From NCBI GenBank assembly GCA_051313645.2, contig JBNRSN020000020.1:75640001-75704000 (forward strand): a DNA stretch of 64,000 nucleotides, written 5' to 3'. This document shows, piece after piece, positions 11,971 through 57,472 of this stretch (position 1 is its first letter; each line of letters begins with the position of its first letter). The stretch is from Centroscyllium fabricii. Lineage: Eukaryota. Both the position numbers and the translations under genes were made by a program. The notes under the pieces were generated by a model. It saw only the letters and a list, made by a program, of their open reading frames with translations. It had not been told where the DNA came from and made no database searches.

Positions 11971-12463
11971 AATGTTACTGCAAAGCCACACTCAACCTCA
12001 TCCTGCTGTGCCACTCATCACATCGCCAATCACTCTGCCTTCCCTACCCTACTCCTGCACATCCTTACTCACACCGAGAACTTGCACGGGACCACGTGAT
12101 CTGCAGGGAGCCAATCAATGGAAGCAGTCCTCCATTCATAACTTACACGGAGAAATCTGTGTAAGTTATGAAAAGGAAGAGCTTCAAAAACACATCTAAA
12201 CACAAAAATAAAATTTAAAAAAACACCACATTTTTTCACAATACTCTAACTAACATAAATTACCTATTTTAATGAAAAAATTAAAATTTAGAAAAAAAAT
12301 GGAAAGTTTTTAACTGGCCTAAAGCAATAATTACCTGTCTTTAAAGTTAAAAAAAATTAAAAACCTGTTAAAACAATACTTAACTTCTATCAAATAAAGA
12401 CTTACCTGCTAAAAACGGCTGGTTACGGCTGATATTTTTAAGTATAAAATCTTCCATACTTAC

Positions 12464-15400
12464 CGTGGTAAACCACTCTTTATGTATATATCTGTATATT
12501 ACTGTAACCCACTGTAACCACCCTTAAACCATGTTGTATTATAGTTCTCTGTGTGTGATCACCTGGACATGCCCATGCTGGCCCCGCCTGTGACTCCTCC
12601 CTCCCAGGACCAGGTACATAAGCGGCCGTCTCCCATCCCCGGCCATTCCTGGGGATGGTCGACTAGCTGGTGCATGTCCACATTTAGCTAATAAAAGCCT
12701 ATAGTTTTCACCTCTTAATAACTCGTCTCCGAGGTCGTTAATTCGGTAACAATTTTATTAGCTAAATTTGACGATGGAATCGATGCTCAAACCAGCAACG
12801 TTCGAGCTGGACCCCCGGACACCAGGCGCATCAAATATCTTTACGCACTGGTTCGACTGCTTTGATGCGTTCATCAAGGCAAACGCGGCGGTCGTCACGA
12901 CCGAGGAGGACAAACGGCGTCTCCTCAATGCCCGGGTGGGCCCTCAGGTATACTCCATGATCGTAGACGCATCATCGTACCAAGATGCAATCCGGATCCT
13001 CAAAGTGGAGTACAACCGGCCACCCAACATCGTCCACGCCAGACACCTCCTGGCTACCAGAAGACAGCAACCCAGTGAGTCCAGCGTGGAGTTCCTACGC
13101 GCGCTGAGAGTACTCTCCCGGGCCTGTAACTGCAGATCGCAGTCGGCCCAGGTCCACGTGGACAGCCTGATCAGGGACGCGTATGTGACTGGCCTCAGGT
13201 CGGACTATATTCGCCAAAGGCTATTAGAACAGAACGGCCTTGACCTGCAGGCGACAGCGGACCTGGGCAACGCGCTGGATGTGGCATCGCTGAATCTGTC
13301 ATCATATTCCGGCAACTATGCGGGCCCAGCCCCGACAGCTTGGACATCGCCGGCGCCGCGACCGGCGGAAGAGATGACTGCGGCCGCTCATTCTAAGACG
13401 GCCAAATGTTACTTCTGCGGGCAGTCTCAGCACCCGAGACGGAACTGCCCGGCAAAAGACGCGGCCTGCTCGAAATGCGGCAAGAAAGGACACTATGCCA
13501 AAGTCTGCAGAGCAACTGCAACGCTGCAATCGAAACCGGGCAGTGCCGCGTGTGGGCAATGGGGGCAGCCATCTTGGACACAGCCATCTTCAACACAGCC
13601 CACCGCGTGGCAGCAGACGCCATCTTGGTCTCAGCCACCCCCTCCGCAGTACACCACATGGCGGCAGCCATCTTGGGACCAGGCCCCAGACGACTTCTCA
13701 ACGGATCAAAACGACTCGACCGACCCGACACTGGCATCCATCACCTTGGATCAGAACAAGGCACAACCACTCAGCAGGTCGATGATGACGGTGGAAGTGA
13801 ACGGGCGGAGCATCGAGTGCTTCTTCGACAGCGGGAGTACGGCAAGTTTTGTCCACCCAGAAACGATAAGGCGCCTCTCCCTTAAGGTTACGCCGGCAAG
13901 CCAAAAGATCTCTATGGTATCAAAGTCGGAATCCGCGGACGTCTCCGGACGTTGCGCGGTGACTCTAACGGTACGGGGCGTGCACTTTAGCAATTTCAAA
14001 CTATTCGTGCTGCCGCAGCTCTGCACTCCATTATTACTGGGCCTGGACTTCCAGTGCCACCTCCAGAGCGTTACCATGGCATACGGTGGGCCCCTTCCCC
14101 CGCTCACGGTCTGCAACCAGCGCTCCTCGCAGCATCCTCAGCGCGCTACCTGTGGCCTCTCGACCCTTAAGGTCGCCCCTCCCTCGCTCTTTGCTAACCT
14201 CACCCCGGACTGCAAGCCCGTCGCCACCAAAAGTAGGCGCTACAGTACCGGGGACATGGACTTCATCAAGTCCGAGGTGAAGCGCCTCCTGAGGGAGGGG
14301 GTCATCGAGGCCAGTAACAGCCCTTGGAGGGCGCAGGTAGTGGTGGTGAAGACCGGAGCTAAGAACCGAATGGTAGTGGACTATAGCCAGACCATTAACC
14401 GGTTCACCCAGTTAGACGCGTACCCCCTTCCCCGGATAGCGGACATGGTAAATCAGATCGCGCAGTTTCGGGTCTTCTCAACTATAGATCTGAAGTCCGC
14501 ATATCACCAGCTTCCCATCCGTCCAGAGGACCGTCTCTATACGGTCTTCGAGGCCGACGGCTGCCTCTATCACTTCCTCAGGGTCCCGTTTGGCGTCACG
14601 AATGGTGTCTCGGTCTTCCAAAGGGAGATGGACCGAATGGTCGATCAGTACGGGCTGCAGGCCACCTTTCCGTATCTCGATAACATGACCATCTGCGGCC
14701 ACGACCTGCAGGACCATGACGCCAACCTCCAGAAATTTCTCCACACCGCCAAAACACTGAACCTGACATATAACACGGAAAAATGTGTGTTCAGGACCAC
14801 CCGCCTCACCATCCTCGGCAGTGTTGTGGAGAATGGGGTCATCGGTCCCGACCCGGACCGCATGCGCCCCCTCCTGGAGCTTCCCCTCCCCCACTCCCTC
14901 AAGGCCCTCAAAAGGTGCCTGGGGTTCTTCGCCTATTATGCCCAGTGGGTCCCCAACTATGCGGACAAAGCCCGCCCACTACTTAAATCGACCTCATTCC
15001 CCCTGTCAGCAGATGCCCGCGCGGCGTTCTGCGGCATTAAGGATGACATTGCAAAGGCAACGATGCACGCTGTGGATGAGTCCGTCCCGTTCCAGGTCGA
15101 GAGCGATGCATCGGACTTTGCCCTGGCCACCACCCTTAACCAGGCGGGCAGACCCGTGGCCTTCTTCTCACGTACCCTCCAGGGCCCCGAGACCCGCCAC
15201 TCTTCAGTCGAGAAGGAGGCCCAGGCCATTGTTGAAGCAGTGCGACACTGGAAGCACTACCTGGCCGGCAAACGATTTACCCTGCTGACTGACCAACGCT
15301 CAGTCGCTTTTATGTTCAACAACAAAGAGCGGGGTAAAATCAAGAACGACAAGATACTGAGGTGGAGAATTGAGCTCTCCGCTTTCAACTGTGATATCTT

Positions 15401-17122
15401 GTACTGGCCCGGGAAATTCAATGAGCCCCCAGATGCCCTATCATGCGGTACATGTGCCAGCGCACAAGTGGACCATCTCCAAACCCTGCACAACGACCTC
15501 TGCCACCCGGGGGTCACCAGGTTGGTCCACTTTGTTAAGTCCCGCAACCTCCCCTACTCCATCGAGGAGGTCAAGACCATGACCAGGAACTGCCAGGTCT
15601 GTGCGGAGTGCAAGCCGCACTTCTTTCGGCCAGACCGGGCGCACCTGATCAAGGCCACCTGCCCCTTTGAGCGACTCAGTGTCGATTTTAAAGGGCCCCT
15701 TCCCTCGTCAAACAGAAACGTGTACTTTCTGAATGTCATCGACGAGTACTCGCGTTTCCCCTTCGCCATCCCCTGCCCGGACATGACCTCTGCCACCGTC
15801 ATTAAGGCCCTCCACAGCATTTTCTCCCTGTTCGGCTACCCCAGCTACATTCATAGCGACCGGGGGGCCTCTTTCATGAGTGACGAGCTGCGTCAGTTCC
15901 TGCTAGCCAAAGGCATCACTACTAGCAGGACTACCAGCTACAACCCCCGGGGGAACGGACAGGTAGAGAGGGAGAACGCCACGGTCTGGAAGGCCATCCT
16001 GTTGGCCCTACGGTCTAAAGGCCTCACAGTCTCCCGCTGGCAGGACGTCCTCCCCGAAGCGCTCCACTCCATCCGGTCACTCCTTTGTACGGCCACTAAC
16101 ACCACCCCTCACGAGCGACTTTTTGCCTTCCCTAGGAAGTCGGCTTCCGGGACCTCGCTGCCGTCATGGCTATCATCCCCGGGACCAGTTCTACTCAGGA
16201 AGCACATGAGGGGCCACAAGTCAGACCCCCTGGTCGAACGGGTCCACCTCCTGCATGCCAATCCCCAGTACGCCTGGCGTACCCCGACGGGAGGGAGGAC
16301 ACAGTGTCCATCAAGGACCTGGCACCAGCGGGTGCCCCCGAGACCAGCCCTGCCCAACAGCCCGCGCCCCCGCGCCTGCCAGCCACCCCCCCCCCCCCCC
16401 CCGGGCCACCGGCACCAAGGTACGCCGCCCAGTACAAGACTCCAGCACCACAGTACGTCCACCCGGCACCTGTAGGCAGCACGGCATGGCCCCCGGCATG
16501 GCTCCACAGTGCACGCGCCCAAGAGTCAGACGACGAGGGGGAGAGCGCGCCGCCAACCGTCACCGCAAGGGCACCGACGAGGAACCGAACGCCCCCGCCG
16601 ATCTCGCTACGACCAACTCAACCGGCTATTTTACATCCACCGACACCACCACCAGCGGTGCGCCTGCCGATCTCACTATGACCAACTCAACCGGCTATCT
16701 TACGTCCACCGACACCACCACCAGCGGTGCGCCGATCAACCAGGCTAACCAGGCCACCCGAAAGACTGAACCTGTAATTTAAAAGAACTGTCGCATTCAC
16801 CCCACCGGACTTTCGTTTTAAAGAAGGGGTGAATGTGGTAAACCACTCTTTATGTATATATCTGTATATTATTGTAACCTACTGTAACCACCCTTAAACC
16901 ATGTTGTATTATAGTTCTTTGTGTGTGATCACCTGGACATGCCCATGCTGGCCCCACCTGTGACTCCTCCCTCCTAGGACCAGGTACATAAGCGGCCGTC
17001 ACCCTCTCCCCGGCCATTCCTGGGGACGGTCGACTAGCTGGTGCATGTCCACCTTTAGCTAATAAAAGCCTATAGTTTTCACCTCTTAATAACTCGTCTC
17101 CGAGGTCGTTAATTCGGTAACA
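12464..17122 (+). mobile_element. Full-length Gypsy/Ty3 LTR retrotransposon (element 1)
   Basis: LTRs at 12464-12751 and 16834-17122, 5-bp TSD CTTAC, PPT AAGAAGGGGTGAA, and PR-RT-RH-IN domain order. Confidence 0.97.
12774..16475 (+). CDS. Gag-Pol polyprotein (single ORF; a frameshift near 16272 moves the integrase tail to the frame ending at 16681)
   Basis: Two CCHC knuckles, protease FDSGS, RT IDLKSAYHQ and YLDN, RNase H SDAS...EKE, integrase HHCC plus D-D-E (VDFKGP, SDRG, GQVER). Confidence 0.92.
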   Translation: MESMLKPATFELDPRTPGASNIFTHWFDCFDAFIKANAAVVTTEEDKRRLLNARVGPQVYSMIVDASSYQDAIRILKVEYNRPPNIVHARHLLATRRQQPSESSVEFLRALRVLSRACNCRSQSAQVHVDSLIRDAYVTGLRSDYIRQRLLEQNGLDLQATADLGNALDVASLNLSSYSGNYAGPAPTAWTSPAPRPAEEMTAAAHSKTAKCYFCGQSQHPRRNCPAKDAACSKCGKKGHYAKVCRATATLQSKPGSAACGQWGQPSWTQPSSTQPTAWQQTPSWSQPPPPQYTTWRQPSWDQAPDDFSTDQNDSTDPTLASITLDQNKAQPLSRSMMTVEVNGRSIECFFDSGSTASFVHPETIRRLSLKVTPASQKISMVSKSESADVSGRCAVTLTVRGVHFSNFKLFVLPQLCTPLLLGLDFQCHLQSVTMAYGGPLPPLTVCNQRSSQHPQRATCGLSTLKVAPPSLFANLTPDCKPVATKSRRYSTGDMDFIKSEVKRLLREGVIEASNSPWRAQVVVVKTGAKNRMVVDYSQTINRFTQLDAYPLPRIADMVNQIAQFRVFSTIDLKSAYHQLPIRPEDRLYTVFEADGCLYHFLRVPFGVTNGVSVFQREMDRMVDQYGLQATFPYLDNMTICGHDLQDHDANLQKFLHTAKTLNLTYNTEKCVFRTTRLTILGSVVENGVIGPDPDRMRPLLELPLPHSLKALKRCLGFFAYYAQWVPNYADKARPLLKSTSFPLSADARAAFCGIKDDIAKATMHAVDESVPFQVESDASDFALATTLNQAGRPVAFFSRTLQGPETRHSSVEKEAQAIVEAVRHWKHYLAGKRFTLLTDQRSVAFMFNNKERGKIKNDKILRWRIELSAFNCDILYWPGKFNEPPDALSCGTCASAQVDHLQTLHNDLCHPGVTRLVHFVKSRNLPYSIEEVKTMTRNCQVCAECKPHFFRPDRAHLIKATCPFERLSVDFKGPLPSSNRNVYFLNVIDEYSRFPFAIPCPDMTSATVIKALHSIFSLFGYPSYIHSDRGASFMSDELRQFLLAKGITTSRTTSYNPRGNGQVERENATVWKAILLALRSKGLTVSRWQDVLPEALHSIRSLLCTATNTTPHERLFAFPRKSASGTSLPSWLSSPGPVLLRKHMRGHKSDPLVERVHLLHANPQYAWRTPTGGRTQCPSRTWHQRVPPRPALPNSPRPRACQPPPPPPPGHRHQGTPPSTRLQHHSTSTRHL

Positions 17123-17341
17123 CTTACCCTGATAAAAAACTCAGAAAAAAATCGGATGTCCACTGCGCACCTCCTGATGCGCAGGCGAACGCGATCCAGC
17201 CAGCTGCAGCTTGTGATCCCCCGCTGGACGCCATTGGAATTATAGGTAGCAGTGGGAAACGGCTGCTCCCTGCAATTCGGAGCTCGGGTGCGTGAGCACC
17301 CAGCTCAAAAACCTCCCGCGCTCATCGGGATTTCTGGCCCA

Positions 17342-19212: not shown

Positions 19213-22200
19213 GTGGGTTTCCAGCGGGTCAGGTTTCCCACATGAATCCTCAAGGGCCTAGGAGCCCCACGCAATTTTGGCTTAAATGGCCAATTGAGTT
19301 CCAGCATGTGGGAAGCCTTGGCACTTGAGTGTTTCCAGTCAGAAAGTCGCACAATATGATGTCATCGTTGCTGGTGCATTTCAGGTCCACAGCGAGCCTT
19401 GCTTCTGCTGCAGACTGCCAACCTTGTGCCCTTTCATGCCAGAGGGACCTGGAGGCAGAATGACCATCGAGACCCCTAGGTCTGCTTCCAGGTTTGATGA
19501 TCTGGCCCTGCAAGCTTTAGTTGAGGGAGCAAGAGCTCATAAAGAGGTGCTCGTTCATTCTTCAGGGAGGAAGAAGTCTCCCCAGCAGGCTGTGTGGATC
19601 CAGGTGGCAGAGGAGGGCAACTCATTATCAGTAACCCGCAGAACCTGGCTTCAGTGCAGGAAGAGGTTTCATGACTTTCTGCGCACTGGAAAAGTGAGGA
19701 TGGAATTCCCCACACCCTCAATCTGATCCCCATTGCCTTTCCTCACCAGCATTCAGCTTCAGCAATCTCTTCCTCCACATCCCACTTGACACTCACATCC
19801 ATGCACCCTTACCCATTCCCTCTCTCTCTATGGTCACATTCACATAACTATTCTACCATGCAGCCCTCACACTCCCTATCACTCTGATGCTTTGGACACA
19901 AATGACAACACACAGGGAGGGCCCTTGGCCTTGCGACCTCACTCCATCTTTGTCCCCTTCTAAGTATCTATGCTATGGAATCTCTACACTCACTCCTTCA
20001 TTCTCACTCAACCTCCACTTGTCTCCCTCATTGCAGGAAAAGAGAGCTCACAATAAGTGAGAACGAGCGAGGACAGGAGGAGTGTCACCCTCACTAGCCC
20101 ACCTCACCCCCTGGGAGGAGGCGGTCCTGGAGATCGTAGGAGTGGAGGAAGATGCGCAAGTGGGAGATGGACAGATGGGTGTATCACAGCAAGCTGGTGC
20201 CAGATTAGTTTTCCATCTCTCTCATGGACATTGCATGAGTCGCTGATAATGATTCTAAAGTTCTGCAATATGAGGAACTGAAAGAAATCTGTATTTGCAG
20301 GGAAATGGTGTTAGGGAAATTGATGGGATTAAAGGCCGATAAATCCCCAGGGCCTGATAATCTACATCTTAGGGTACTTAAGGAAGTGGCTCTAGAAATA
20401 GTGGACGCATTACTGATTATCTTCCAGCAATCGATGGAATCTGGAATTGTACCCATGGATTGGAGGGTGGCTAATGTTACCACACTATTCAAAAAGGGTG
20501 GTAGGGAGAAAGCGGGAAATTACAGACCAGTAAGCCTGACATCGGTAGTGGGGAAGATGCTGGAGTCCATAGAAACATAGAAGATAGGAGCATGAGTAGG
20601 CCATTTGGCCCTTCGAGCCTGCGCCGCCATTCAATGAGATCATGGCTGATCATCCAAACCCAGTATCCTGTCCCTGCCTTGTCCCCAAATCCCTTGATCC
20701 CTATCGAGCCTGCACCGACACACATCCCACCCTATCCCCGTAACCCCACATATTCAATCCCCCTAACACTAAGTGTCAATTTATCATGGCCAATCAACCT
20801 AACCCGCACATCTTTGGACTGTGGGAGGAAACCGGAGCACCCGGACGAAACCCACGCAGACACGGGGAGAATGTGCAAACTCCACACAGATAGTACCCGA
20901 GGCTGGATTTGAACCCGGGTCTCTAGTGCTGTAAGGCAACAGTACTAACCACTATGTCACCGTGCCGCCCTCTGGAGTTTAGAAGATTGAGCGGGGATCT
21001 CATCGAAACGTATAAAATTCTAACTGGTCTGGACAAACTTGATACAGGAAGAATGTTCCCAATGATCGGAGAGTCCAGAACCAGGGGTCATAGTCTAAGG
21101 ATAAGGGGTATCTCATTTAGGACAGAGATGAGGAGGAATTTCTTCACCCAGAGAGTGGTGAACCTGTGGAATTCTCTGCCACAGAGGGCGGTGGAGGCTA
21201 GTTCATTGAATATATTCAAGAAGGAGCTGGATCTATTTCTTAAGGCTAGAGGGATCAAGGGATACGGGGAGAAGGCAGGGACAGGGTACTGAGTTTGGAT
21301 GATTAGCCATGATCATTGAATGGCGGAGCAGGCTCGAGGGGCCGAATGGTCTACTCCTGCTCCTATCTTCTATGTTTCTATGCAAGGTGCATGTAACTTT
21401 GGCATCACATCTCTAACTCTTTCCTTTACTCCCCGACAGGACCATCGCAAGCAGCCGTTCCCACTAGATAGGAGGAACAGCCTGAGCATCTAGACCCCTC
21501 AGAGGAAGCTGCAACCTCTGAGGGCGCAGCGTCAGCAGAATTCAGCGCACCCAGCACCAGCGCAGACACTCACATTTCGGGGGGACCTTCGGGACATAGA
21601 GTAGTGTTGTCACCTTGTGTCACAGCTCACAAGTATGCATCAGCAGATTGTGGAGGCAGGGGCAGCAGTGGAGAGTCCTAGTCAGAGGGCGCAGGACTCT
21701 GCCAGCTCGACTCAGCTGCATGTCAACCCTGTGCCTCTGGGTCCATCCATAAGATCGGCGGTGCTGGAACTCCAGGAACAGATGTAGGAGTGGATGGGTG
21801 AGCAGCAGCCTGGCGCTCCTGTTGCTGCTGCTGTTGTTCCTGGTTCTGCTGGTGCCGCGGCTGGTGTGGGAGCTCATCTAATGCCCAGAAAGGAATTAAA
21901 TAAATGGCTTTCACGCTTCTGGCATATGCTTCCGCTGAAGAAGCGCTGAGTGAAGGTGCCGAGAGGGGTTTCCCAGGAGTTCACACTGGAGGTGTGTGTG
22001 AGGCTCCAACCTTCCACAGGTGTGCTTAAGACTTCTAAAAGTTGCCCCAATCCTGACATAATAAGGTCCTGCCACCTGCATATGATGGCTGATTCAATCT
22101 CATACTTTATGATGGACTTGCAGCTGAGAATCAGCAAGCCAATTGTGTCCCCGCCAGGCTTCACCGGCGGTGTTTCCAGCTGCCAGGTTTTGTGTGGGAA

Positions 22201-22446: not shown

Positions 22447-22899
22447 TACAGGTTCCTGCAGTGCTATGTGAAAGTGTGCCGCCCTACTCTTCCAACTCTA
22501 GCCTCCTTTGCCTCCCCTCCATCTCCACTCTAACTGAACTGTTTTTTTCTCCCAATTTCATCTTTGTTACAAATCCCATTTAACTCCCACAACCCCCTGT
22601 AGCGTAGTCGCTAGCTCAATTAAAAGGTGACAAGTAAGTACCGAAATACAAGGCTTTTAATTGCTAAAGAATGGAGCTACTCTCCTCCACGAGTTACAAT
22701 ACAGGAATGAATGAACTTGGGTCAGACCACACCAATACCGGGGCCTCACCTGGGGGAGGAGTCGGGGGTGTGGCTGACCTGGTTCTCGGCAGTGTCATAA
22801 CAAACAGGGCTGTGCCTAACAGTTGCACAGCCCATTATTAGCAGTGGTTATACAGTGGTAATATAGTGGTAATATAATGGTTACCACATTCACCCCTTC

Positions 22900-25261
22900 T
22901 TAAAAACTTTGAGTCTGGGGGGGGGGTGAATGGATGGAACAGTTCATAATGAGTCTGTCTGGCGGTCGTGTCTTTCTGGCGGACCGCTGGAGCTCCGGTG
23001 TTGGTGGTGATGCCTCCACGGTCGAATAGCCCGCATCTGTCGGCGCTGTGGCTTCTGGACGTGGTGGGCTTGGCTGGGCCTCGGCGTCTGGGGCGTAGTC
23101 AGGGAAACTCGGGGTCCATCTGTCAGTTGGTTGGTCATCCTGCTGGCCAGCAGGAGGCGCTGTGGTGGTGTTTCCGGCCGGGGCCAGGTCCCTGATGGAC
23201 ACGGTGTCCTCACGCCCGTCTGGGAACTGCACAAAGGTGTAGTGCAGGTTGGCGTGTAGGAGCTGTACCTTGTCCACCAGGGGGTCCGTCTTGTGGTTCC
23301 GGACGTGCCTTTTAAGGAAAACCGGCCCCGGAGTCGTCAGCCATGGGGGGAGTGCCGTCCCCGAAGTCGACTTCCTGTTAAAGGAAAAAATAAGATCGTG
23401 CGGGGTGGCGTTAGTAGCAGTACATAACAGTGATCGGATAGAGTGCAGCGCATCTGGGAGGACTGCCTGCCAATGGGACACTGAAAGGTCTCTGGACTTG
23501 AGAGCCAGGGTGACCGCCTTCCAAATGATCCCATTCTCCCTTTCTACCTGGCCGTTCCCCCGGGGGTTATAACTGGTCGTTCTGCTCGTGGCAACCCCTT
23601 TCTGGAGCAGAAACTGGCGCAGTTCATCGCTCATGAACGACGACCCCCGGTCGCTATGGATGTAGCTGGGGAGACCGAAAATGGTGAACAGCGTGGTGAA
23701 GTGTTTTATCACCGTGGCGCTCATCATATCTGGGCAGGGGAAGGCGAAGGGGAAGCGGGAGAACTCATCCACTACCGTGAGGAAGTATGAGTTGCGGTCG
23801 GTGGAAGGAAGGGGGCCTTTGAAGTCTACGCTGAGACGTGCAAAGGGGCGGGTGGCCTTGATGAGGCGCGCCGTGTCTGGCCGGAAAAAGTGGGGTTTGC
23901 ACTCGGCACAGACAGGGCACCCTTGGGTCATAGCCTTGATCTCCGTGATGGAGTAGGGGAGGCTACGGGATTTGACGAAATGGGCGAGTCTGGTGACACC
24001 CGGGTGGCAAAGGCGGTCGTGGAGGTCCTTCAGCCGGTCGAGCTGGGCACTGGCGCACGTTCCCCTGGACAGTGCGTCCGGGGGTTCGTTGAGTTTGCCT
24101 GGTCGGTAAAGAATGTCATACTCGTAAGTCGAGAGTTCGATCCGCCACTGCAGGATCTTATCATTCTTGATTTTACCCCGTAGTTTATTATTAAACATAA
24201 ACGCTACCGACCGTTGGTCGGTGAGCAGGGTAAAACGCTTACCGGCCAGGTAATGACGCCAGTAGCGCACGGCCTCCACAATGGCCTGGGCCTCCTTTTC
24301 CACTGCTGAGTGGCGAGTTTCGGGTCCCTGTAAGGTGCGGGAGAAAAACGCTACGGGCCTGCCTGCCTGATTCAGGGTGGCGGCAAGGGCAAAGACCGAA
24401 GCGTCGCTCTCCACCTGGAAGGGGATGGATTCATCAACAGCGAGCATGGTCGCCTTGATAATATCTTCCTTTATCCTTGCGAATGCCTTTTGGGCTTCTA
24501 CCGAAAGGGGGAAGACGGCAGCCTTGAGGAGTGGTCTAGCCTTATCTGCAAACTGTGGGACCCATTGTGCATAATAGGAGAAAAATCCTAGGCATCTCCT
24601 CAAGGCTTTGGGATTGTGAGGTAGGGGCAGTTCTAGCAGGGGTCGCATACGCTGTGGGTCGGGGCCGAGGAGCCCGTTCTCCACCACGTATCCGAGGATG
24701 GCGAGCCGGTCTGTATTAAAGACACATTTGTCTTTGTTATACGTAAGGTCCAGCTTAGCCGCCGTGTCGAGGAATTTGGCCAGATTGGCATCGTGGTCCT
24801 GCTGGTCGTGGCTGCAGATGGTCACGTTGTCCAGGTAGGGGAAAGTGGCCTGCAAGTCATTCTGGTCAATCATGCGGTCCATCTCCCATTGGAACACGGA
24901 CACTCCATTGGTCACGCCAAAGGGGACCCGGAGGAAGTGGTAGAGCCGACCGTTCGCCTCGAAGGCGGTGTAGGGGCGGTCAGCTTTCCGAATCGGGAGC
25001 TGGTGATACGCCGATTTAAGGTCGATTGTGGAGAAAACCTTGTACTGGGCGATCTGGTTGACCATTTCCGAGATGCGGGGAAGGGGGTAGGCGTCGAGCC
25101 CGGTGTAGCGGTTGATAGTCTGGCTGTAGTCGATAACCAGCCGCTGTTTCTCCCCAGACTTCACCACTACAACTTGGGCGCGCCAGGGGCTGGTGCTGGC
25201 TTCAATAATCCCCTCCTTCAGCATCCGCCCGACCTCCGACCTGATAAACGTGCGGTCCCCC
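22900..25261 (-). CDS. Element A pol, RT-RNase H-integrase part (separated from gag-PR by element B)
   Basis: IDLKSAYHQ, YLDN, ESDAS, HHCC and DDE motifs. Rejoins 'RRYSEG|DRTFIRSEV' across the insertion. Confidence 0.9.
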
Positions 25262-25543: not shown

Positions 25544-28500
25544 TCACCCCTTGTTAAAAACTTTGAGTCCAGGGGGGGGCGAATGGATGGAACAGTTCAT
25601 AATCAACCATTCCGGCGGTCGTCTCTTCCTGGAGGACTGTCGGCGCACCAGTGTAGAAGGTGATGCCTCCCTGGTGGAATGGTCCGCCTCTGCCGGCACT
25701 GTGACTTCCGGTGGCGGAGTGCTCGTTGGATCGCAGTCAGGGGAACTCGGGGGCAATCCTGTGTCTGGTGGGTGAACAACTTGGTGGCCGGCGGGGGGTG
25801 CTGTCGTGGTGTTTCCGGCCGGGGCCAGGTCCCTGATGGACACGGTGTCCTCACGCCCGTCTGGGAACTGCACGAAGGCGTAGTGCGGGTTGGCGTGAAG
25901 TAGCTGTACCTTGTCCACCAGGGGGTCCGTTTTGTGGCTCCGGACGTGCCTCCTAAGCAAAACCGGCCCTGGAGTCGTCAGCCATGGGGGAAGGGCTGTT
26001 CCAGAAGTGGACCTCCTGTGGAAGGAAAAAACGAGATCATGCGGAGTGGCGTTAGTAGCTGTACACAACAGTGACCGGATAGCGTGCAGCGCATCTGGGA
26101 GGACTGCCTGCCAATGGGATACTGGACGGCCTCTGGACTTGAGAGCCAGGGTGACCGCCTTCCAAATGATCCCATTCTCCCTTTCTACCTGGCCGTTCCC
26201 CCGGGGGTTATAACTGGTCGTTCTGCTCGTGGCAACCCCTCTCTGGAGCAGATACTGGCGCAGTTCATCGCTCATGAACGATGACCCCCGGTCGCTATGG
26301 ATGTAGCCGGGGAGACCGAAAATGGCGAACAGCGTGGTGAAGTGTTTGATCACCGTTGCGCTCGTCATATCTGGGCAGGGGAAAGCGAAGGGGAAGCGGG
26401 AGAACTCATCCACTACCGTGAGGAAGTATGAGTTGCGGTCGGTGGAGGGAAGGGGGCCTTTGAAATCAACGCTGAGACGTTCAAAGGGGCGGGTGGCCTT
26501 GATGAGGTGCGCCGTGTCTGGCCGGAAAAAGTGTGGTTTGCACTCAGCACAGACAGGGCACTCTCGGGTTATATCCTTTATCTCCGTGATGGAGTAGGGG
26601 AGACTACGAGATTTAACGAAGTGGGCGAGTCTGGTGACACCCGGGTGGCAAAGGCGATCGTGGAGATCCTTCAGCCGGTCTAGCTGGGCACTGGCGCACG
26701 TTCCCCTGGACAGTGCGTCCGGGGGTTCATTGAGTTTACCTGGTCGGTAAAGAATGTCATACTCGTAAGTCGAGAGTTCGATCCGCCACCGCATGATCTT
26801 ATCATTCTTGATCTTACCCCGTAGTTTATTATTAAACATAAACGCCACCGACCGTTGGTCAGTGAGCAGGGTAAAACGCTTACCGGCCAGGTAATGACGC
26901 CAGTAGCGCACGGCCTCCACGATGGCCTGGGCCTCCTTTTCCACTGCGGAGTGGCGAGTTTCGGGTCCCTGTAAGGTGCGGGAGAAAAACGCTACGGGCC
27001 TGCCTGCCTGATTCAGGGTGGCAGCAAGGGCAAAGTCCGAAGCGTCACTCTCCACCTGGAAAGGGATGGATTCATCAACAGCGAGCATGGTCGCCTTGGC
27101 GATGTCTTCCTTAATCCTTGCAAAAGCTGTCTGTGCTTCTGCAGAAAGGGGGAAGGCGACAGCCTTGAGGAGTGGTCTAGCCTTATCTGCGAACTGTGGG
27201 ACCCATTGTGCATAATAGGAGAAAAATCCTAGACATCTCCTCAAGGCTTTGGGGTTGTGAGGTAGGGGCAGTTCTTGCAGGGGTCGCATACGCTGTGGGT
27301 CGGGGCCGAGGACCCCGTTCTCCACCACGTATCCGAGAATGGCGAGCCGGGCTGTATTAAAGACACATTTGTCTTTGTTATACGTGAGGTCCAGTTTAGC
27401 CGCCGTGTCGAGGAATTTGGCCAGATTGGCATCGTGGTCCTGCTGGTCGTGGCCGCAGATGGTCACGTTGTCCAGGTAAGGGAAGGTGGCCTGCAAGTCA
27501 TGGTGATCAACCATACGGTCCATCTCCCGTTGGAACACGGACACTCCATTGGTCACGCCAAAGGGGACCCGGAGGAAATGGTAGAGCCGACCGTTCGCCT
27601 CGAAGGCGGTGTAGGGGCGGTCGGCTTTCCTGATCGGGAGCTGGTGATACGCCGATTTAAGGTCGATCGTAGAGAACACCTTATACTGGGCGATCTGATT
27701 GACCATTTCCGAGATGCGGGGGAGGGGGTAGGCGTCGAGCCCGGTGTAGCGGTTGATAGTCTGGCTGTAATCGATAACCAGCCGCTGTTTCTCGCCAGAC
27801 TTCACCACCACAACTTGGGCGCGCCAGGGGCTGGTGCTGGCTTCAATTATCCCCTCCTTCAGCATACGCCCGACCTCCGACCTGATAAACGTGCGATCCC
27901 CCTCACTGTACCGCCGACTCTTAGTGGCAATGGGCTTGCACTTCGGATCGAGGTTGGCGAACAGCGAGGGGGAGTCGATTCTCAGGGTGGAGAGGCCGCA
28001 GGCCGGGCTCCGCTTTGGGGTGGAATTGTCCCGGCTACTGACGGTGAGGGAGGGTAAGGTCCCGCCGAACTCCACTGTCACACTCTGGAAGTGGCACTGG
28101 AAATCCAAGCCTAGCAAGGCTGGGGCACACAACTGTCGGAGGGTATACAATTTAAAATTATGGTACACGCGTCCCTTGACGGTGAGCGTGACGGAGCAGT
28201 AGCCGGTAACGTCCGCGGTGTGGGACTGTGAAGCTAGGGAGATTTGGTAGTTAGTGGGCAGGATCTGCAGTCCACAGCGCCGTACGGTATCCGGGTGGAC
28301 GAAACTCTCCGTGCTGCCTGTGTCAAAAAGACAGTCAACATTAAAGTTATTAATTTTTACCGGAATAATCGAGTTGGACAGGGTATGAGGCCTGTCCTGG
28401 TTAACTGTAATTTTGGCTGCAGCAGCCCCTGCTGGCCGGGGCTGTGCACAAGATGATTTTTCCTGAAAACAAAATGGCGCCGTCCCTGCCCCGCACTGTG

Positions 28501-29998
28501 AGGGGCACTGGACCGGAAATAGCATCGCCCCTGCCCCGCACTGTGAGGGGCACTGGACCGGAAATAGCGTCGCCCCTGCCCCGCGCTGTGAGGAGCACTG
28601 GACCGGAAATAGCGTCGCCCCTGCCCCGCACTGTGAGGGGCACTGGACCGGAAATAGCGTCGCCCCTGCCCCGCACTGTGAGGGGCACTGGACCGGAAAT
28701 AGCATCGCCCCTGCCCCGCGCTGTGAGGAGCACTGGACCGGAAATAGCGTCGCCCCTGCCCCGCACTGTGAGGGGCACTGGACCGGAAATAGCGGCGCCC
28801 CTGCTCCGCGCTGTGAGGGGAAACCCCGTACATCAAATGGCGCCATTTCTGACTGTGAGGGGAAACCCCGTACATCGGATGGCTTTGTCTCTGCACCGCA
28901 TGTGGTCGGGCCTCTGGTGCTAAGAGATGTCTCTGGCCCGCCCGTGGAGGGACTCTGGCCCTGTGAACGCGCTGGCGGCGCCCGTGGTTCGCACGCAGCG
29001 GACCGCGGTGATCGGGTTGGCGGTGCCCGTGGTTCGCACGCAGCCGGCCGCGTTGAGGGGTCACGCTTGGCCGGCCTTCTCTGCATCAGGTAAGAAGGGG
29101 TGGGGGGTGGGGGCGCTCGTTGTCTACCCCCGTACCGTCGCTGAATCGCGCTGCCAATGCATCTTACCTGGTCGGTGCTCTCACAGGCTGCACTTTTATA
29201 CCTTCGGTTAGGCGCTGGTGGAGATGTTGTTGGACCTGACTTACAGGCTTTAGCGAAGTGCCCCTTCTTTAAGCATTTGATACAGGTCGCTGTCCTGGCT
29301 GGGCATTTCGCTCTCGGGTGCAGTCCTTGGCCGCAGAAGTAGCAGTGCTAGGCTCTAGTGTCTTTAGTGGCCGTCGCGGCCATCGTGGGGCTCTCGGCCC
29401 GTGGCGCCCAGGCTTGGGCCTGTTGTGGCGCGGCCCATACACTGTAGGCTTGCGGGTTTGTGCCGCCATACGCCTGTAGTTTATTATGGGCCCCCTCTAC
29501 CGATCTGGCTAACATGGTCGCCTCCTCGAGGGTCAAATTATCTCTTTCCAGCAGCCTCTGACGGGCCTCTACGCATCGCAGTCCCGTAACATAAGCGTCC
29601 CGAACGAGGAGTTCTTCCTCCTGCGCAATAGTTGTGCCTTTGCAGCCACAGGCCCGCACCAGGGCCAGGAGCGCTTGCTCAAACTCCTCGTTTGACTCAC
29701 CCGGTAGCTGGGATCGGGTCGCTAGCACATGTCGGACGAAGACGGAATGGACCGGGCGCTCGTAGCATTTCTTGAGGATCGCTACGGTGTCCACATAGGT
29801 TGAAGCGTTCATGACGAGGGTGAAAACCCTGCTGGAGATCCTTGATCTCAGGACCTGTAGCTTGTCCCCGTCCGTAGTAGCCTTGGCAGCTGCTGTATAG
29901 GCCTGTAGTAGGCCGAACCAGTGTATGAAGGTAGCCGGTGCAGCGGCATCCTGGGGACTAATGTCCAGCTTCTCAGGCTTCACCGTGCTGCTATCCAT
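25544..29998 (-). CDS. Element B Gag-Pol, one reading frame with a single in-frame TAG at 29348-29350
   Basis: Gag 29998-29348. The frame continues HCYFCGQG...CIKCLKKGHFAKAC into the 1180-aa ORF with FDTGS, YLDN, RH and IN. Confidence 0.9.
28470..28880 (-). repeat. In-frame 42-bp tandem repeat (about 8 full copies plus degenerate ones)
   Basis: Encodes (GAGATLFPVQCPSQC)-like 14-aa units between the zinc knuckles and the protease. Confidence 0.9.
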
Positions 29999-30299
29999 TT
30001 TAAACTAGTAATTAAAATTGTAGTGAACCCAATTAAAGAGGCTACGAGTTTGTACCGAACAATAAGGCTTTTAATTACTAAATAATGGAGCTACACTCCA
30101 GGCAACAATCATAACAGAACTGGGTGGAGCCCCGGTCAGACCACACCTATATAGAGCCCCACAAGGGGAGGAGTCGGGGGTGTGGCTGATCTGGCTCCCA
30201 ACAAGATCACAGTAAAACAGGGCTGTGCCTAACATCAGCACAGCCCACAATCAATCCCGGCAACACAGCAGTGGGATACAGTACAATACGATTACCACA

Positions 30300-32268
30300 C
30301 CCCCTCACTGTATCGCCGACTCTTAGTGGCGATAGGTTTGCACTTTGGGTCGAGGTTGGCGAACAGCGAGGGGGGATCGATTTTCAGGGTGGAGAGGCCG
30401 CAGGCCGGGGTCCGCTTCGGGGGGAGATTGTCCCGGCTACTGAGGGTGAGGGGGGGTAAGGTCCCACCGAACTCCATTGTCACGCTCCTGAAGTGGCACT
30501 GGAAATCCAAGCCTAGTAAGGCTGGGGCACACAACTGTTTGAGGGTATACAACTTAAAGTTATGGTACACGCGTCCCTGGACGGTGAGCGTGACGGAGCA
30601 GTAGCCGGTGACGTCCGCGGTGTGGGACTGTGAAGCTAGGGACACTTGGTAGTTGGTGGGCAGGACCTGCAGTCCGCAGCGCCGCACTGTATCAGGGTGA
30701 ATAAAGCTCTCGGTACTGCCCGTGTCAAGAAGGCAGTCGACAGTATGGCTATTAATAGCGATCGATATTATTGAATTAGACAGGTGATGGGGCCTGCTTT
30801 GACTAACTCTGGTTCTGGCTGCAGCAGTCCCTGCTGATAGGGACTGTGCACAAAATGGCGGCGCCCCTGGCTCGCACATGGAGGGGCCCTGGATGCAAGA
30901 TGGCGTCACCCCTGGCCCGCAGCTGGTGGGACCCCGTATACAAAATGGCGCCGCCCCTGGCTCGCAGATGGAGGGGCCCTGGATGCAAGATGGCGTCGCC
31001 CCTGGCCCGCAGCTGATGGGACCCCGTATACAAAATGGCGCCGCCCCTGGCTCGCACATGGAGGGGTCTAGGTTGTGGAGCGGCGTTTCTGAGGGGCCCT
31101 GACGCACTGGCGGCGCCCGTGATTCGCACGCAGCGAACCGCGGTGAACTCACTGGCGGTACGTTGTGGAGCGGCGTTTCTGAGGGGCCCTGACGCACTGG
31201 TGGCGCCCGTGATTCGCACGCAGCGAACCGCGGTGAACGCGCTGGCGGCGCCCGTGATTTGCACGCAGCGAACCGCGGTGAACGCGCTGGCGGCGCCCGT
31301 GATTCGCACGCAGCGAACCGCGGTGGTCTGGTTGGCGGTGCCCGTGATTCGCACGCAGCCGGCCGCGTTGTAGGGTCGCGCTTGGCCGGTCGCCGCTGCA
31401 TCGGGATGCGGGAAGGGGGGGCTTGCCGTCGCTGGATTGCACTGCAATTGTAGCTTACCTGCTGGTTGCTCTCACAGGCTGCACTGTTGTACCTTTTTGG
31501 AACTGCTGCTGGAGCCGATCTGCAGGCCTTGGCAAAGTGTCCTTTCTTAGCGCATTTTTCGCAGGTCGCAATCCTGGCCGGGCATTTTGCTCTGGGATGC
31601 AATCCTTGGCCGCAGAAGTAACAATGTTTGTGTTTAGTGTCCGTGGTGGCCGTCGCGGCCATCGTGGGGCTCTCGGTCCGTGACGCCTATTGTGGCGCGG
31701 CCCATACATTGTAGACTTGTTGATTTGTGCCACCGTATGTCTGTGATTTGTTACGGGCCCCTTCCACCGATTTAGCTAACATGGTTGCCTCCTCAAGGGT
31801 CAGGTTATCCTTCTCCAGTAACCTCTGACGGGCTACTCCGCATCTTAGTCCAGAAACATAAGCGTCCCTGAGGAGGAGGTCTTCCTCCTGTGCAACAGTC
31901 AATCCGCCCTTGCAGCCACAGGCCCGCACCAGGCCCCGGAGCGCTTGCTCGAACTCATCGTTCGACTCACTGGGTAGCTGAGATCGGGTCGCTACTATGT
32001 GTTGAGCGTAGACGGAATGGACCGGGCGCTCATAGCACTTCTTGAGGGTCGCCACAGTTTCCTCGTAGGTTGTAAGATCCTGGACAAGGGTGAAGACCCT
32101 GCTGGAGATCCTGGATCTCAGGACTTGTAGTTTGTCCTCGTCCTTAGTAGCCTTGGCGGCTGCTGTATAGACCTGTAGTAGGCCGAACCAGTGCTTGAAG
32201 GTAGCTGGTGCCGCGGCATCCTGGGGGCTAACGTCCAGCTCCCTAGGCTTTACCGAGTTGCTCTCCAT
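30300..32268 (-). CDS. Element A gag-protease part with an in-frame TAG at 31687-31689
   Basis: MESNSVKP...WAAPQ*ASRTESPTMAAT...CYFC...LDTGS. Tandem repeats at about 30850-31370. Confidence 0.85.
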
Positions 32269-33049
32269 TTTTAAGTTTAGCAATTAAAATTGTAGCGTAG
32301 TCGCTAGCTCAATTAAAAGGCGACAAGTAAGTACCGAAATACAAGGCTTTTAATTGCTAAAGAATGGAGCTACTCTCCTCCACGAGTTACAGTACAGGAA
32401 TGAATGAACTTGGGTCAGACCACACCTATACCGGGGCCTCACCTGGGGGAGGAGTCGGGGGTGTGGCTGACCTGGTTCTCGGCAGTGTCATAACAAACAG
32501 GGCTGTGCCTAACAGTTGCACAGCCCATTATTAGCAGTGGTTATACAGTGGTAATATAGTGGTAATATAATGGTTACCACACCCCCCACACCCACAACTA
32601 AATTCCATCACAAATGGTACAATGGGCAAAAAAAATGTTGGGGGGAGAAGTGCATGATTTTGTTTAATTGTACAAAAAATCAACCACTGCATTATTGGTT
32701 AAAATGCACAGCTGGCATTAGTTTCAAAATTCAAATTTCAAAATGTCCTCGCCAATATCAAATGTCCTGGCCAATATTTATCCCTCAATCAATACCATTT
32801 AAAAAAACCCAGATCATCTAGTCATTATCACAATGCTATTTGTGGGAGCTTGCTGTGCGCAAATTGGCTGCCGCATTTCCCAAATTACAACAATGACTAC
32901 ACTTCAAAAGTAGTTAATTGACTGTAAAGCACTTTAGGACATCCCGAGGCCGTGAAAGGCGCTATATAAATGCAAGTCTTTCTTTCTTTACCTCTGGTCA
33001 CAGAATCTTCATTCCTCTTAATCTCGGTGGGACCTCAAATATTTTTAGT

Positions 33050-48461: not shown

Positions 48462-50103
48462 GGGATCGAATTTATCAATGGGGATGTGATGGAGGCGAAA
48501 CACCCACATTTTGGGTTGTAGTCCCGCCTTCATCGACTTGTGCCCAACCCACTTTATTTTCCCTTGATTGACCTTGTTAAGCCCGCCCAGTGGGCTCAGC
48601 AGGCCAATTAAGGGTCACCTGGTTACTGGCAACATCAGCGATTGACATTTCATCTGTCAAGAGCTTTTGACAGATGAAAAATCAACATTTGACAGCTCTG
48701 CGAAGCTGTCAAACACTTACAATCTGTCTGCTAACTTGAGTCCTTCTACTCAGACTCAGTTAGAGAGCTCTCCAGACCAGAAAGCAGAATGCTGCAGCTT
48801 TTGACAGTTCAGTGGCCATTTTGCTTTCTGTGCCGGTGAGCTGAGGGACTCCCAAGAACTGAAGGAAGGAAGCCTGCAGGAGAAAGTAAAGGTAAGTAAA
48901 ACTTAGAAAAACACTTTACACTTACCTCACACACTTACCTCGGCACGCATGCACCCATCACTCACTTGCACAACGGACATGTCGACCCCTCCAACCCCTT
49001 CAGACTGACGATCCACATCGCTAACTTGGCGTGGGTCGGCGCCGTCGGGAAGCCCACACTTCAGGGCTAAAAATAGGTACAGGTTGTGCACCATTAATCC
49101 GTTACCCGATAAGCCGGCAGCTTCAGTCTTCCGGAAAAAATTGTCCCGACTGCCCTGTGCATGCACAAATTTGCCGCCACGATTAATGCTTCAGTGAATG
49201 ATCTGCGCATGCGCCGCCGAATGGCGAGCGCATGCACAGATCATTTACAATGGGCGCCGCAAAGTTTTTAATGAGCTGCGCATGCGCTGCCGAACGATCC
49301 CGAGCCGGGCCTTCCCGAGCCTCGCCTTACCGAGCCGAGGCTTAGCGAGCGTTCCTGAGCCGGGCCTCGCCTTACCAAACCGGGGCCTCCCGAGCCGGGC
49401 CTTACAGAGTCTTCCCGAGCCGGGCCGGGGCTTCCCGAGCCGGGCCTCGCCTCGCCTCACTGAGCCTTCCCGAGCCGGGCGGGGGCTTCCCGAGCCGGGC
49501 CTCACCTCGCCTCACTGAGCCTTCCCGAGCCGGGCCGGGGCTTCCCGAGCCGGGCCTCGCCTCGCCTCACTGAGCCTTCCCGAGCCGGGCGGGGGCTTCC
49601 CGAGCTGGTGCTTCCCGAGCTGGGCCAAGGCTTCCTGAGCCAGGCCTCACCTCGACTTACCGAGCCGGGCCGGGGCTTCCTGAGATGGCCCTCGCCTTAC
49701 CGAGCCAGGCCATACCGAACGATAAACGCTTGCACAGACCACTCAAAATGGCCGCTGACCTTTCGCGGCCACCACTTTGAATGGTCTGCGCATGCGCTCG
49801 CCGAAGCTTCAATCATTCGGGATTTTCCCGGCACGGGCCTGGTCCCACCCATGCCGGATTAACAGTGCTCAACCTGTATTAGGCAAAAAACTGCCTGTTA
49901 ACTACCTGTTAACAGGCAGTTAATTGGCACTAATCCCCTTCCCGCCTCGGGGAGGCGGCTCCCAGCTCAGGTCGGGTATCCGCCTCCTGGGACATTGGCA
50001 CGGAGGCAGGTTGGGGCGGGATGGGTTACTGCTCCCCGATTCTGCAATTTTCCAGCACACCCGCCTCCAAACCCATTTCCTCGGGGCTTGGAAATTCAAG
50101 CCC
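48462..50103. mobile_element. Harbinger-like MITE containing a nested Tc1/mariner-like MITE (49080-49876)
   Basis: Outer TIRs GGGATCGAATTT / AAATTCAAGCCC. Inner TIRs CAGGTTG..CAC / GTG..CAACCTG with a TA TSD and an expanded CCCGAGCCGGGC repeat at about 49280-49710. Confidence 0.7.
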
Positions 50104-57057: not shown

Positions 57058-57472
57058 TAAACATAGAAACATAGAAACATAGAAGATAGGAGCAGGAGTA
57101 GGCCATTCGGCCCTTCGAGCCTGCTCCACCATTCAATGAGATCATGGCTGATCATCCAAACCCAGTACCCTGTCCCTGCCTTCTCCCCATATCCCTCGAT
57201 CCCTAGCGAGCCTGCACCAACACATATCCCACCCTATCCCCGTAACTCCACATATTTAATCCCCCTAACACTAAGGGTCAATTTATCCTGGCCAATCAAC
57301 CTAACCCGCACATCTTTGGACTGTGGGAGGAAACCGGAGCACCCGGAGGAAACCCACGCAGACACGGGGAGAATGTGCAAACTCCACACAGATAGTACCC
57401 GAGGCTGGATTTGAACCCGGGTCTCTAGTGCTGTGAGACAACAGTGCTAACCACTGTGCCACCGTGCCGCCC
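57058..57472 (-). mobile_element. HE1-like V-SINE
   Basis: Same head, core and tail as the other copies. Confidence 0.85.

Follow-up and report, generated by a model that had tools for sequence, protein, structure and literature searches.

Self-complementary primer sites in Ty3/Gypsy elements of Centroscyllium fabricii point to priming by the capped 5′ end of the element's own transcript

The question raised by this locus is which RNA primes reverse transcription in three LTR retrotransposons that carry no TGG-starting site matching a tRNA 3′ end. The elements, termed here 1, A and B, lie in a 64,000-nucleotide stretch of the C. fabricii genome (the window; coordinates count from its first letter). 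The initial annotation had proposed that the site downstream of each 5′ LTR is complementary to a segment of the element's own LTR, and the three complementarities proved exact at the positions given below. The single spacer base, an A, that follows the CA end of each 5′ LTR and the lack of TGG at the site were likewise confirmed for all three elements. The features of interest are the following.

12464..12751, plus strand: 5′ LTR of element 1, defined by its 3′ partner
12615..12622, plus strand: TATA-like box of element 1, 30 nt upstream of the Inr A
12644..12696, plus strand: putative primer of element 1, a capped 5′ transcript fragment of 52–53 nt, placed by run-off ends and the Inr position
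C12644 or A12645, plus strand: candidate first bases of this primer, within the Inr-like CCATTCC
12682..12696, plus strand: LTR arm of the priming helix of element 1 and presumed primer 3′ end, containing AATAAA at 12690-12695
12697..12751, plus strand: rest of R and U5 of element 1, beginning with GCC
12752, plus strand: spacer A, the single base after the 5′ LTR of element 1
12753-12767, plus strand: primer-binding site of element 1, complementary to its own LTR arm
12774, plus strand: gag ATG of element 1, downstream of the primer site
12762..16475, plus strand: Gag-Pol frame of element 1, with CCHC knuckle, protease, RT, RNase H and integrase
16820-16833, plus strand: polypurine tract of element 1, adjoining the 3′ LTR
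16834-17122, plus strand: 3′ LTR of element 1, with an unmasked AATAAA at 17061-17066
12459-12463 and 17123-17127, plus strand: target duplication CTTAC of element 1
32581-32291, minus strand: 5′ LTR of element A, part of 32276..32581
32430, minus strand: TATA-like box of element A, with the predicted start at about 32401
32361-32348 and 32289-32276, minus strand: helix arm and primer site of element A
22888-22598, minus strand: 3′ LTR of element A; target duplication GGGGG
30299-30019, minus strand: 5′ LTR of element B, part of 30006..30299, nested in A
about 30121, minus strand: predicted start of element B
30080-30069 and 30017-30006, minus strand: helix arm and primer site of element B
25542-25262, minus strand: 3′ LTR of element B; target duplication GGGGG

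Paired TG...CA LTRs, target duplications and a polypurine tract, together with the order protease–RT–RNase H–integrase recognized by Pfam, identify the elements as Ty3/Gypsy (Metaviridae); the CCHC knuckle of element 1 was read from its translation. By self-comparison, the two LTRs are 96% identical in element 1, whose 5′ LTR begins with C where its 3′ LTR has T, 99% identical in A and 100% identical in B. The description of the elements as three families held insofar as all three show the pairing, but not as to their independence: A and B are close subfamilies, with RTs 97% identical as against 76% for the LTRs, and B is nested inside A, so that the window holds two lineages. Neither a chromodomain nor an env match was found in the six frames scanned with Pfam, a set comprising two frames that reach the integrase end (from A and B) but not the shifted C-terminal frame of element 1. 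The best PDB matches were 4ol8_A (RT/RNase H, E 4e-44) and the Ty3-G Gag-Pol chain 7q5b_A (E 1e-43). Among the best 120 of 1581 protein matches, the nearest were from rays and catsharks (75–85% identity), and relatives at about 60% identity came from a sea anemone, Trichuris, Trichinella and many unnamed assemblies. No relative was found among viral contigs, and the Atlas protein clusters returned only generic Gag/CCHC matches. The named Gypsy clades of metazoans include Mag, CsRn1, Gmr1, Saci2, MolGy and Barthez. The RT motif of our elements was found neither in full texts nor in the searched supplement files of PMC6238403 and PMC8556966, as far as the available parts of these sources extend. 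Taken as a whole, the comparisons make it likely that we are dealing with a non-chromovirus Ty3/Gypsy lineage of cartilaginous fishes which, to judge from its protein relatives, would also be present in sea anemones and nematodes.

The pairing between primer site and LTR extends well beyond the window. For element 1 a helix of 15 bp had been described, and this is correct for the copy at hand; the 15th pair, however, is a variant of this 5′ LTR that is absent from its own 3′ LTR, and the helix of the family is 14 bp long. Among 60 element-1 loci (L001–L060), all 14 pairs are present in 49 and 13 of 14 in four, while one locus retains 5 of 14 and six were unscored. A search of the 7.2 Gb of the genome for the junction pattern WTAAAAGCC-N25-55-CAATTTTAW returned 231,006 matches; the reversed pattern, used as a control, gave 11. 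Of 100 listed matches, 99 had complementary bases at the two W positions, as judged by eye. Covariation was followed in 32 junctions, namely L061–L089 and the three of the window, the palindromic locus L090 being left out. At positions 7–13, which the search pattern does not fix, 26/32 junctions show complete pairing (7/7) with their own LTR, versus 64/992 cross-pairings, and on average 6.75 of the 7 positions are paired with the own LTR, compared with 4.77 when other LTRs are substituted. The observed pairing sum was reached by 0/10,000 permutations, in which the kinship of the copies is not corrected for. Four pair types occur at position 8 and two or more at positions 6, 9, 12 and 13, and the covariation fades past position 13–14. 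Across the 32 junctions the primer site takes the form of 18 different 13-mers, each matching its own LTR.

The same arrangement is found in distant relatives. From metagenomes, 80 loci (best of 297) were picked by RT homology alone, a choice that avoids selection for the helix; 31 were too short upstream, leaving 49 that could be tested. A motif-anchored helix with at least 8 of 10 free positions paired is present in 30/49. In the 20 distinct groups that these represent, a mean of 9.7 of 10 positions pair with the own LTR versus a cross mean of 5.3, and the spacer, which the anchor fixes, is one base in 20/20; control inverted repeats within pol reach 6–10 bp. The motif-anchored helix was not found in the remaining 19/49 loci. 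In three of these (L109, L119 and L167, which are near-copies) the anchor motif is mutated and the helix or remnants of it are visible. In an RT tree of 59 rows without outgroup, in which 34 metagenome rows are labelled helix-bearing, the helix-less loci are scattered, several of them beside helix-bearing near-copies; some may have lost the helix. The earlier claim that the sequences differ while the pairing is kept is thus borne out by the 32 junctions as well as by the metagenome relatives. The claim that the helix always ends at AAAA|GCC stands for the window but needs widening for the distant groups, which have AAA|RCC or a close variant, in one case a compensated AGA/TCT. The pattern is real and lineage-wide. 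With sites that lack TGG and that are complementary to, and co-vary with, the LTR of the same element, we regard tRNA-independent self-priming in these elements as very highly probable.

The length of such a primer may be approached from the position of the transcription start. An Inr-like A lies 49–54 nt upstream of the presumed cut in 30/32 junctions, and a TATA-like box precedes it by 28–33 nt in 29/32 (two junctions had no Inr call and one no TATA call). The initial annotation had placed the paired segment some 35–40 nt downstream of the TATA-predicted start; the distance is 37–38 nt, and this start is backed by the run-off ends of aberrant copies described below. The motifs alone could not exclude a start at the paired segment, since element A has a second Inr-like motif directly before the helix, 19 nt before the cut. 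Only 2/20 distant groups show a similarly spaced TATA box, and the long primer is therefore supported for this genome only.

Aberrant copies offer a second line of evidence. In A/B-type families, 334 loci were found in which the LTR is followed, past the primer site, by an inverted copy of LTR sequence (0 in the control). These searches catch only inverted copies of at least 25–31 nt, so that short primers are invisible to them, and read-through loci amount to a few per thousand junctions. The ends were classified by eye from 80-letter match listings, taking the first 100 rows per family group (which come from the first contigs), and the number expected at the Inr was computed with the early ends as background; only L090 and L171–L173 were inspected with their flanks. 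The element-1-type listing held 74 loci, reduced to 69 by the removal of four non-LTR chance matches and one duplicate. In 35/69 the inverted copy ends in a 4-nt interval at the Inr, where 3.1 would be expected; seven end 3–6 nt short of it, 16 earlier and one at +5, and ten run into U3. Among the A/B-type loci (57, or 55 once a chance match and a duplicate had been dropped), 8/55 end in the Inr interval (2.1 expected, P about 1e-3), two just past it and 13 earlier, while 32 run on into U3. Copies that extend to the base before the Inr A continue with C in 14/16 cases, at a position where the LTR itself has G or A (P about 1e-5 under a one-in-three null); genome-wide, the element-1-type pattern yields 69 loci with an extra C at the end. 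Reverse transcriptases add an extra C opposite the cap G, and the extra C fits copying of this base. Several extra Cs also match the sequence jumped into, and microhomology may contribute to some of these cases.

The individually inspected loci illustrate the range of products. In L171 and L173 the inverted LTR stretch measures 41 and 43 nt, after which the sequence switches to the U5 end or into gag. L090, which has a 5-bp target duplication, consists of a whole LTR, one A and a perfect inverted LTR copy that extends over 242 bp to the beginning of U3. L172 was rejected as a read-through, as it is an inversion of U5 between the arms, and for this reason the run-on cases are treated as a mixed class. 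This class (32/55 A/B-type and 10/69 element-1-type loci) needs an added fold-back or template switch.

Since inverted copies end at the transcription start, the primer would be a capped 5′ fragment, 52–53 nt long in element 1. The same ends indicate, indirectly, that the cut-off 5′ end of the transcript serves as primer and is copied into the plus strand, and they favour the 5′ over the 3′ copy of R as its source, a choice that had been left open. We consider it probable that the primer is the capped 5′ fragment of about 52 nt, only the last 14 nt or so being paired. Hundreds of faulty genomic copies most likely record both its sequence and its start point.

Alternatively, the primer may be short, of the size known from Tf1, either because a second start is used at the Inr-like CCATT before the helix or because a second cut trims it to about 14–18 nt; the 52-nt inverted copies would then result from the plus strand switching, via its copy of the 14-nt site, onto a capped and uncut second RNA. 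The downstream motif in element A, the similar motifs before the helix in some distant groups, the fading of covariation beyond the 14th position and the scarcity of read-through loci would all agree with such a primer. Yet the downstream motif has no TATA-like box, whereas the upstream Inr has one at the usual distance in 29/32 junctions, and the long run-off ends demand an extra switching step; we hold both the short primer and the switching that it calls for to be unlikely.

It is quite unlikely, too, that the primer is supplied by the 3′ copy of R, in which case an end created by cleavage or trimming of the genomic RNA at AAAA, close to its 3′ terminus, would pair with the site while still joined to U3. 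The inverted copies that continue into U3, the complete palindrome of L090 and the oligo-A at the primer end in nearly all groups could be read in this way. However, neither the pile-up of ends at the start nor the extra C would be expected from a primer still attached to U3, and the local helix of the 5′ region, about 50–60 nt long, is predicted to form almost fully. The run-on class could be accounted for by fold-back of the 52-nt inverted repeat, and as fold-back yields the same product, the L090 palindrome was dropped as proof of 3′-end priming.

Besides its part in the capped-fragment priming favoured here, the paired segment holds the poly(A) signal. AATAAA or ATTAAA lies within the helix in 32/32 junctions (the pattern fixes WTAAA and leaves the first A free). 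In folding predictions, the mean unpaired probability of the hexamer is 0.04 when the primer site follows, versus 0.61 without it, the hexamer staying paired either way in A and three others. A first search for poly(A) junctions gave eight distinct loci, one clearly LTR-derived (control, five rows), and a second gave five, two of them clearly running from LTR into an A run and one common to the first search. Two LTR copies run into an A tract 11–13 and 16–18 nt past the hexamer, which weakly suggests that this is a working poly(A) signal leaving about 10–17 nt of R after the cut. Four contig sets contained no ends, poly(A) loose ends or joints informative on priming. The proposal that the helix masks the 5′ poly(A) signal agrees with the hexamer of all 32 junctions, which is buried only where the primer site follows, but extends less well to the distant groups: the hexamer is canonical in 11/20 of these, and the helix is kept without it in 9/20, which argues that priming rather than masking is the conserved role. 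For the present genome, the chances that the helix helps to suppress premature polyadenylation appear about even. That the helix merely masks the signal or shapes the leader, while a tRNA fragment or another small host RNA primes, would sit well with a canonical and helix-buried hexamer in every junction examined here, but is very improbable, given that mature tRNAs end in CCA and their 3′ end cannot fit a site without TGG, that each of the 18 13-mers follows its own LTR, that the site keeps a fixed distance of one base from the LTR end, that it persists in the nine groups without canonical hexamer, and that the sequence beyond the site is LTR and not tRNA (LTR sequence being required by the search patterns).

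Self-priming by the capped fragment might proceed as follows. RNA polymerase II would start some 52 nt upstream of AAAA|GCC, at the TATA/Inr promoter, as the motifs and run-off ends suggest, and transcript bases 38 to 52 or so would pair with the primer site one base past the LTR, as indicated by covariation. This priming helix would be stacked on a second helix beginning at GCC: the GCC after the cut is predicted to pair with GGY inside U5, the second helix starting at 12696|12697 in element 1. Its pairing probability exceeds 0.5 in 19/32 junctions and it is predicted in most distant groups; the folding z-scores of whole leaders are modest (−1.0, −3.0 and −0.9 for three leaders). Cleavage at AAA(A)|RCC would follow, the probable nuclease being the element's own RNase H, as in Tf1; a comparison with Rfam revealed no ribozyme, only sub-threshold hairpin matches in five loci. 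The capped fragment of about 52 nt would prime minus-strand DNA from its 3′ OH, and the first strand transfer may use only about 10–17 nt of R, if the two poly(A) junctions are representative. Plus-strand synthesis would normally regenerate some 13–14 nt of the primer site from the primer, so that LTR and primer site change together. Occasionally the plus strand would read on to the cap and leave the inverted LTR copy seen in the genome, and a 52-nt inverted end folding back on its own strand could give rise to the run-on copies and to L090. In this genome the paired segment, with its poly(A) signal, would be hidden within the helix at the 5′ LTR and accessible at the 3′ LTR. It is tempting to generalize this scheme to a metazoan-wide form of self-priming in non-chromovirus Gypsy elements, with a capped primer of about 52 nt, a helix coupling priming to poly(A) silencing, a strand transfer over 10–17 nt of R and genomic read-throughs that record primer and start at the level of the base; this generalization is tentative, somewhat short of an even chance.

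Several of these traits are reminiscent of known systems. As in Tf1 and Tf2 of Schizosaccharomyces pombe, Tj1 and the Tf1/sushi group, there is no tRNA site and the site beside the 5′ LTR base-pairs with R of the same element, and as in Tf1 the primer would be cut from the transcript and copied into the cDNA's 3′ end (PMC7175516, PMC11042837, PMC4600332, in their available text). In Tf1, RNase H cleaves between bases 11 and 12 of a structured leader, which the second helix at our cut recalls (PMC7175516); the primer stays in place and is copied at the cDNA 3′ end, and a single-stranded copy of the primer site is kept by about half of the cDNA (PMC11042837). The Tf1 primer is, however, 11 nt long, fully paired and taken from the extreme 5′ end, whereas here the paired stretch begins 37–38 nt after the presumed start and the putative primer of 52–53 nt has an unpaired 5′ part and includes the poly(A) signal. 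Moreover, Tf1/sushi elements are chromoviruses; the elements described here have neither the pairing segment at the extreme 5′ end nor, in the frames scanned, the C-terminal chromodomain of the integrase that mark this group.

Primer sites complementary to the LTR have also been predicted in plants, for Tcn1 (Gypsy) and for TAR, Houba and Osr-1 (Copia) (PMC6317226). Of these, Tcn1 belongs to the chromoviruses and is related to Tf1/sushi, TAR belongs to Copia, and the parts of that account available to us describe neither a long primer nor poly(A) overlap nor run-off evidence. Dictyostelid Skipper is likewise a Gypsy element without TGG for which unconventional priming has been proposed; contrary to our elements, the Skipper elements are chromoviruses with a pyrimidine tract and, in the text available, no complementarity to their own LTR (PMC5006619). 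As regards polyadenylation, HIV-1 must repress the AAUAAA in its 5′ R, with RNA structure, proximity to the cap and U1 being cited (PMC5961354), and this signal offers a functional precedent for masking by a strand present at the 5′ LTR only. HIV-1 differs in having a tRNA primer and a local hairpin in both copies of R, whereas here the masking strand is the primer site, which follows the 5′ LTR only. No account of priming in the present lineage was found in the literature searched, which comprised few subscription papers and no Repbase Reports, nor in the available parts of PMC3601003, PMC12471100, PMC5341516, PMC2836005, PMC6934838 and PMC9873768. It is quite possible that self-complementary primer sites in these families have been remarked upon in Repbase; that the long primer and its evidence are already in print is less likely.

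In the accounts compared, as far as their available text goes, self-priming is an established fact for Tf1 and a prediction for a few lineages, and the primer is in every instance short and drawn from the extreme 5′ end. If the present reading is true, tRNA-independent priming would exist in a second design, possibly of separate origin: the primer would be long, capped and paired over part of its length only, would overlap the poly(A) signal and would belong to a chromodomain-less lineage with more than 230,000 junctions in one vertebrate genome. This raises the questions of which activity cleaves the RNA, what normally halts plus-strand synthesis after about 14 nt and how so short an R suffices. 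Such elements would escape control by tRNA fragments, and annotation tools that require a tRNA site would miss or mislabel them. Read-through copies can reveal the primer and the start site without RNA data, in any high-copy element whose primer is unknown.

Two metagenome relatives belonging to one family, L107 and L114, differ by a single change within the helix arm of the LTR, and this change is matched by a complementary change in the primer site, as would be expected if the primer site were re-copied from the primer. A primer ending in AAA and one ending in AAAA are indistinguishable from the DNA. The 3′ end of the polypurine tract reads GAA, TAA or AAA ahead of TG in nearly all LTR pairs (window 16820-16833; L091-L119). 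Judging from these sequences, the linear DNA may therefore carry two extra bases at both ends.

Aberrant copies from the genome that holds the window (G000) include two loci:

G000:C1:731148-734210, minus strand, palindromic integrant (L090)
G000:C1:84174215-84174775, rearranged element (L172)

The palindromic integrant consists of a complete family-B LTR, one A and a perfect inverted copy of 242 bp that reaches the start of U3; it is bounded by a 5-bp target duplication, with a U3 end at either side. In the rearranged element, U5 is inverted between both helix arms, after which the sequence jumps into pol. The same kind of U5 inversion may apply to several A/B-type run-on loci, that is, inverted copies reaching into U3, that are missing from the 334-locus inverted-copy search set. 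Among the element-1-type inverted copies listed, the one at G000:C2:25064567 begins as an element-1-type LTR and goes on as an A/B-type inverted LTR, which suggests template switching across families.

Both A and B are flanked by GGGGG target duplications, and B has inserted into the pol region of A, to which it is closely related. A target preference is possible. The saccharopine dehydrogenase Pfam match in the first frame of B is probably spurious. These duplications and other repeats in the window are as follows:

22593-22597 and 32582-32586, target duplication, element A
25257-25261 and 30300-30304, target duplication, element B
28427-29090, 45-nt tandem repeats, gag-protease linker of B
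30853-31405, 45-nt tandem repeats, gag-protease linker of A
49264-49708, short-period tandem array, outside LTR elements
1939-2238, 20559-20858, 57061-57360 and others, several dispersed repeat families, outside LTR elements

In predicted folds of the leaders, the LTR bases immediately 5′ of the helix have two alternative partners, namely an upstream GGAG or the region of the gag start codon:

32255-32401, minus strand, leader of element A
12644-12790, plus strand, leader of element 1

Pairing with GGAG forms a local hairpin and is present in the predicted fold of B, while pairing with the gag start codon is predicted for A and, in part, for element 1. Such alternative pairing might act as a stop for plus-strand synthesis, and it might also serve as a switch between translation and priming.
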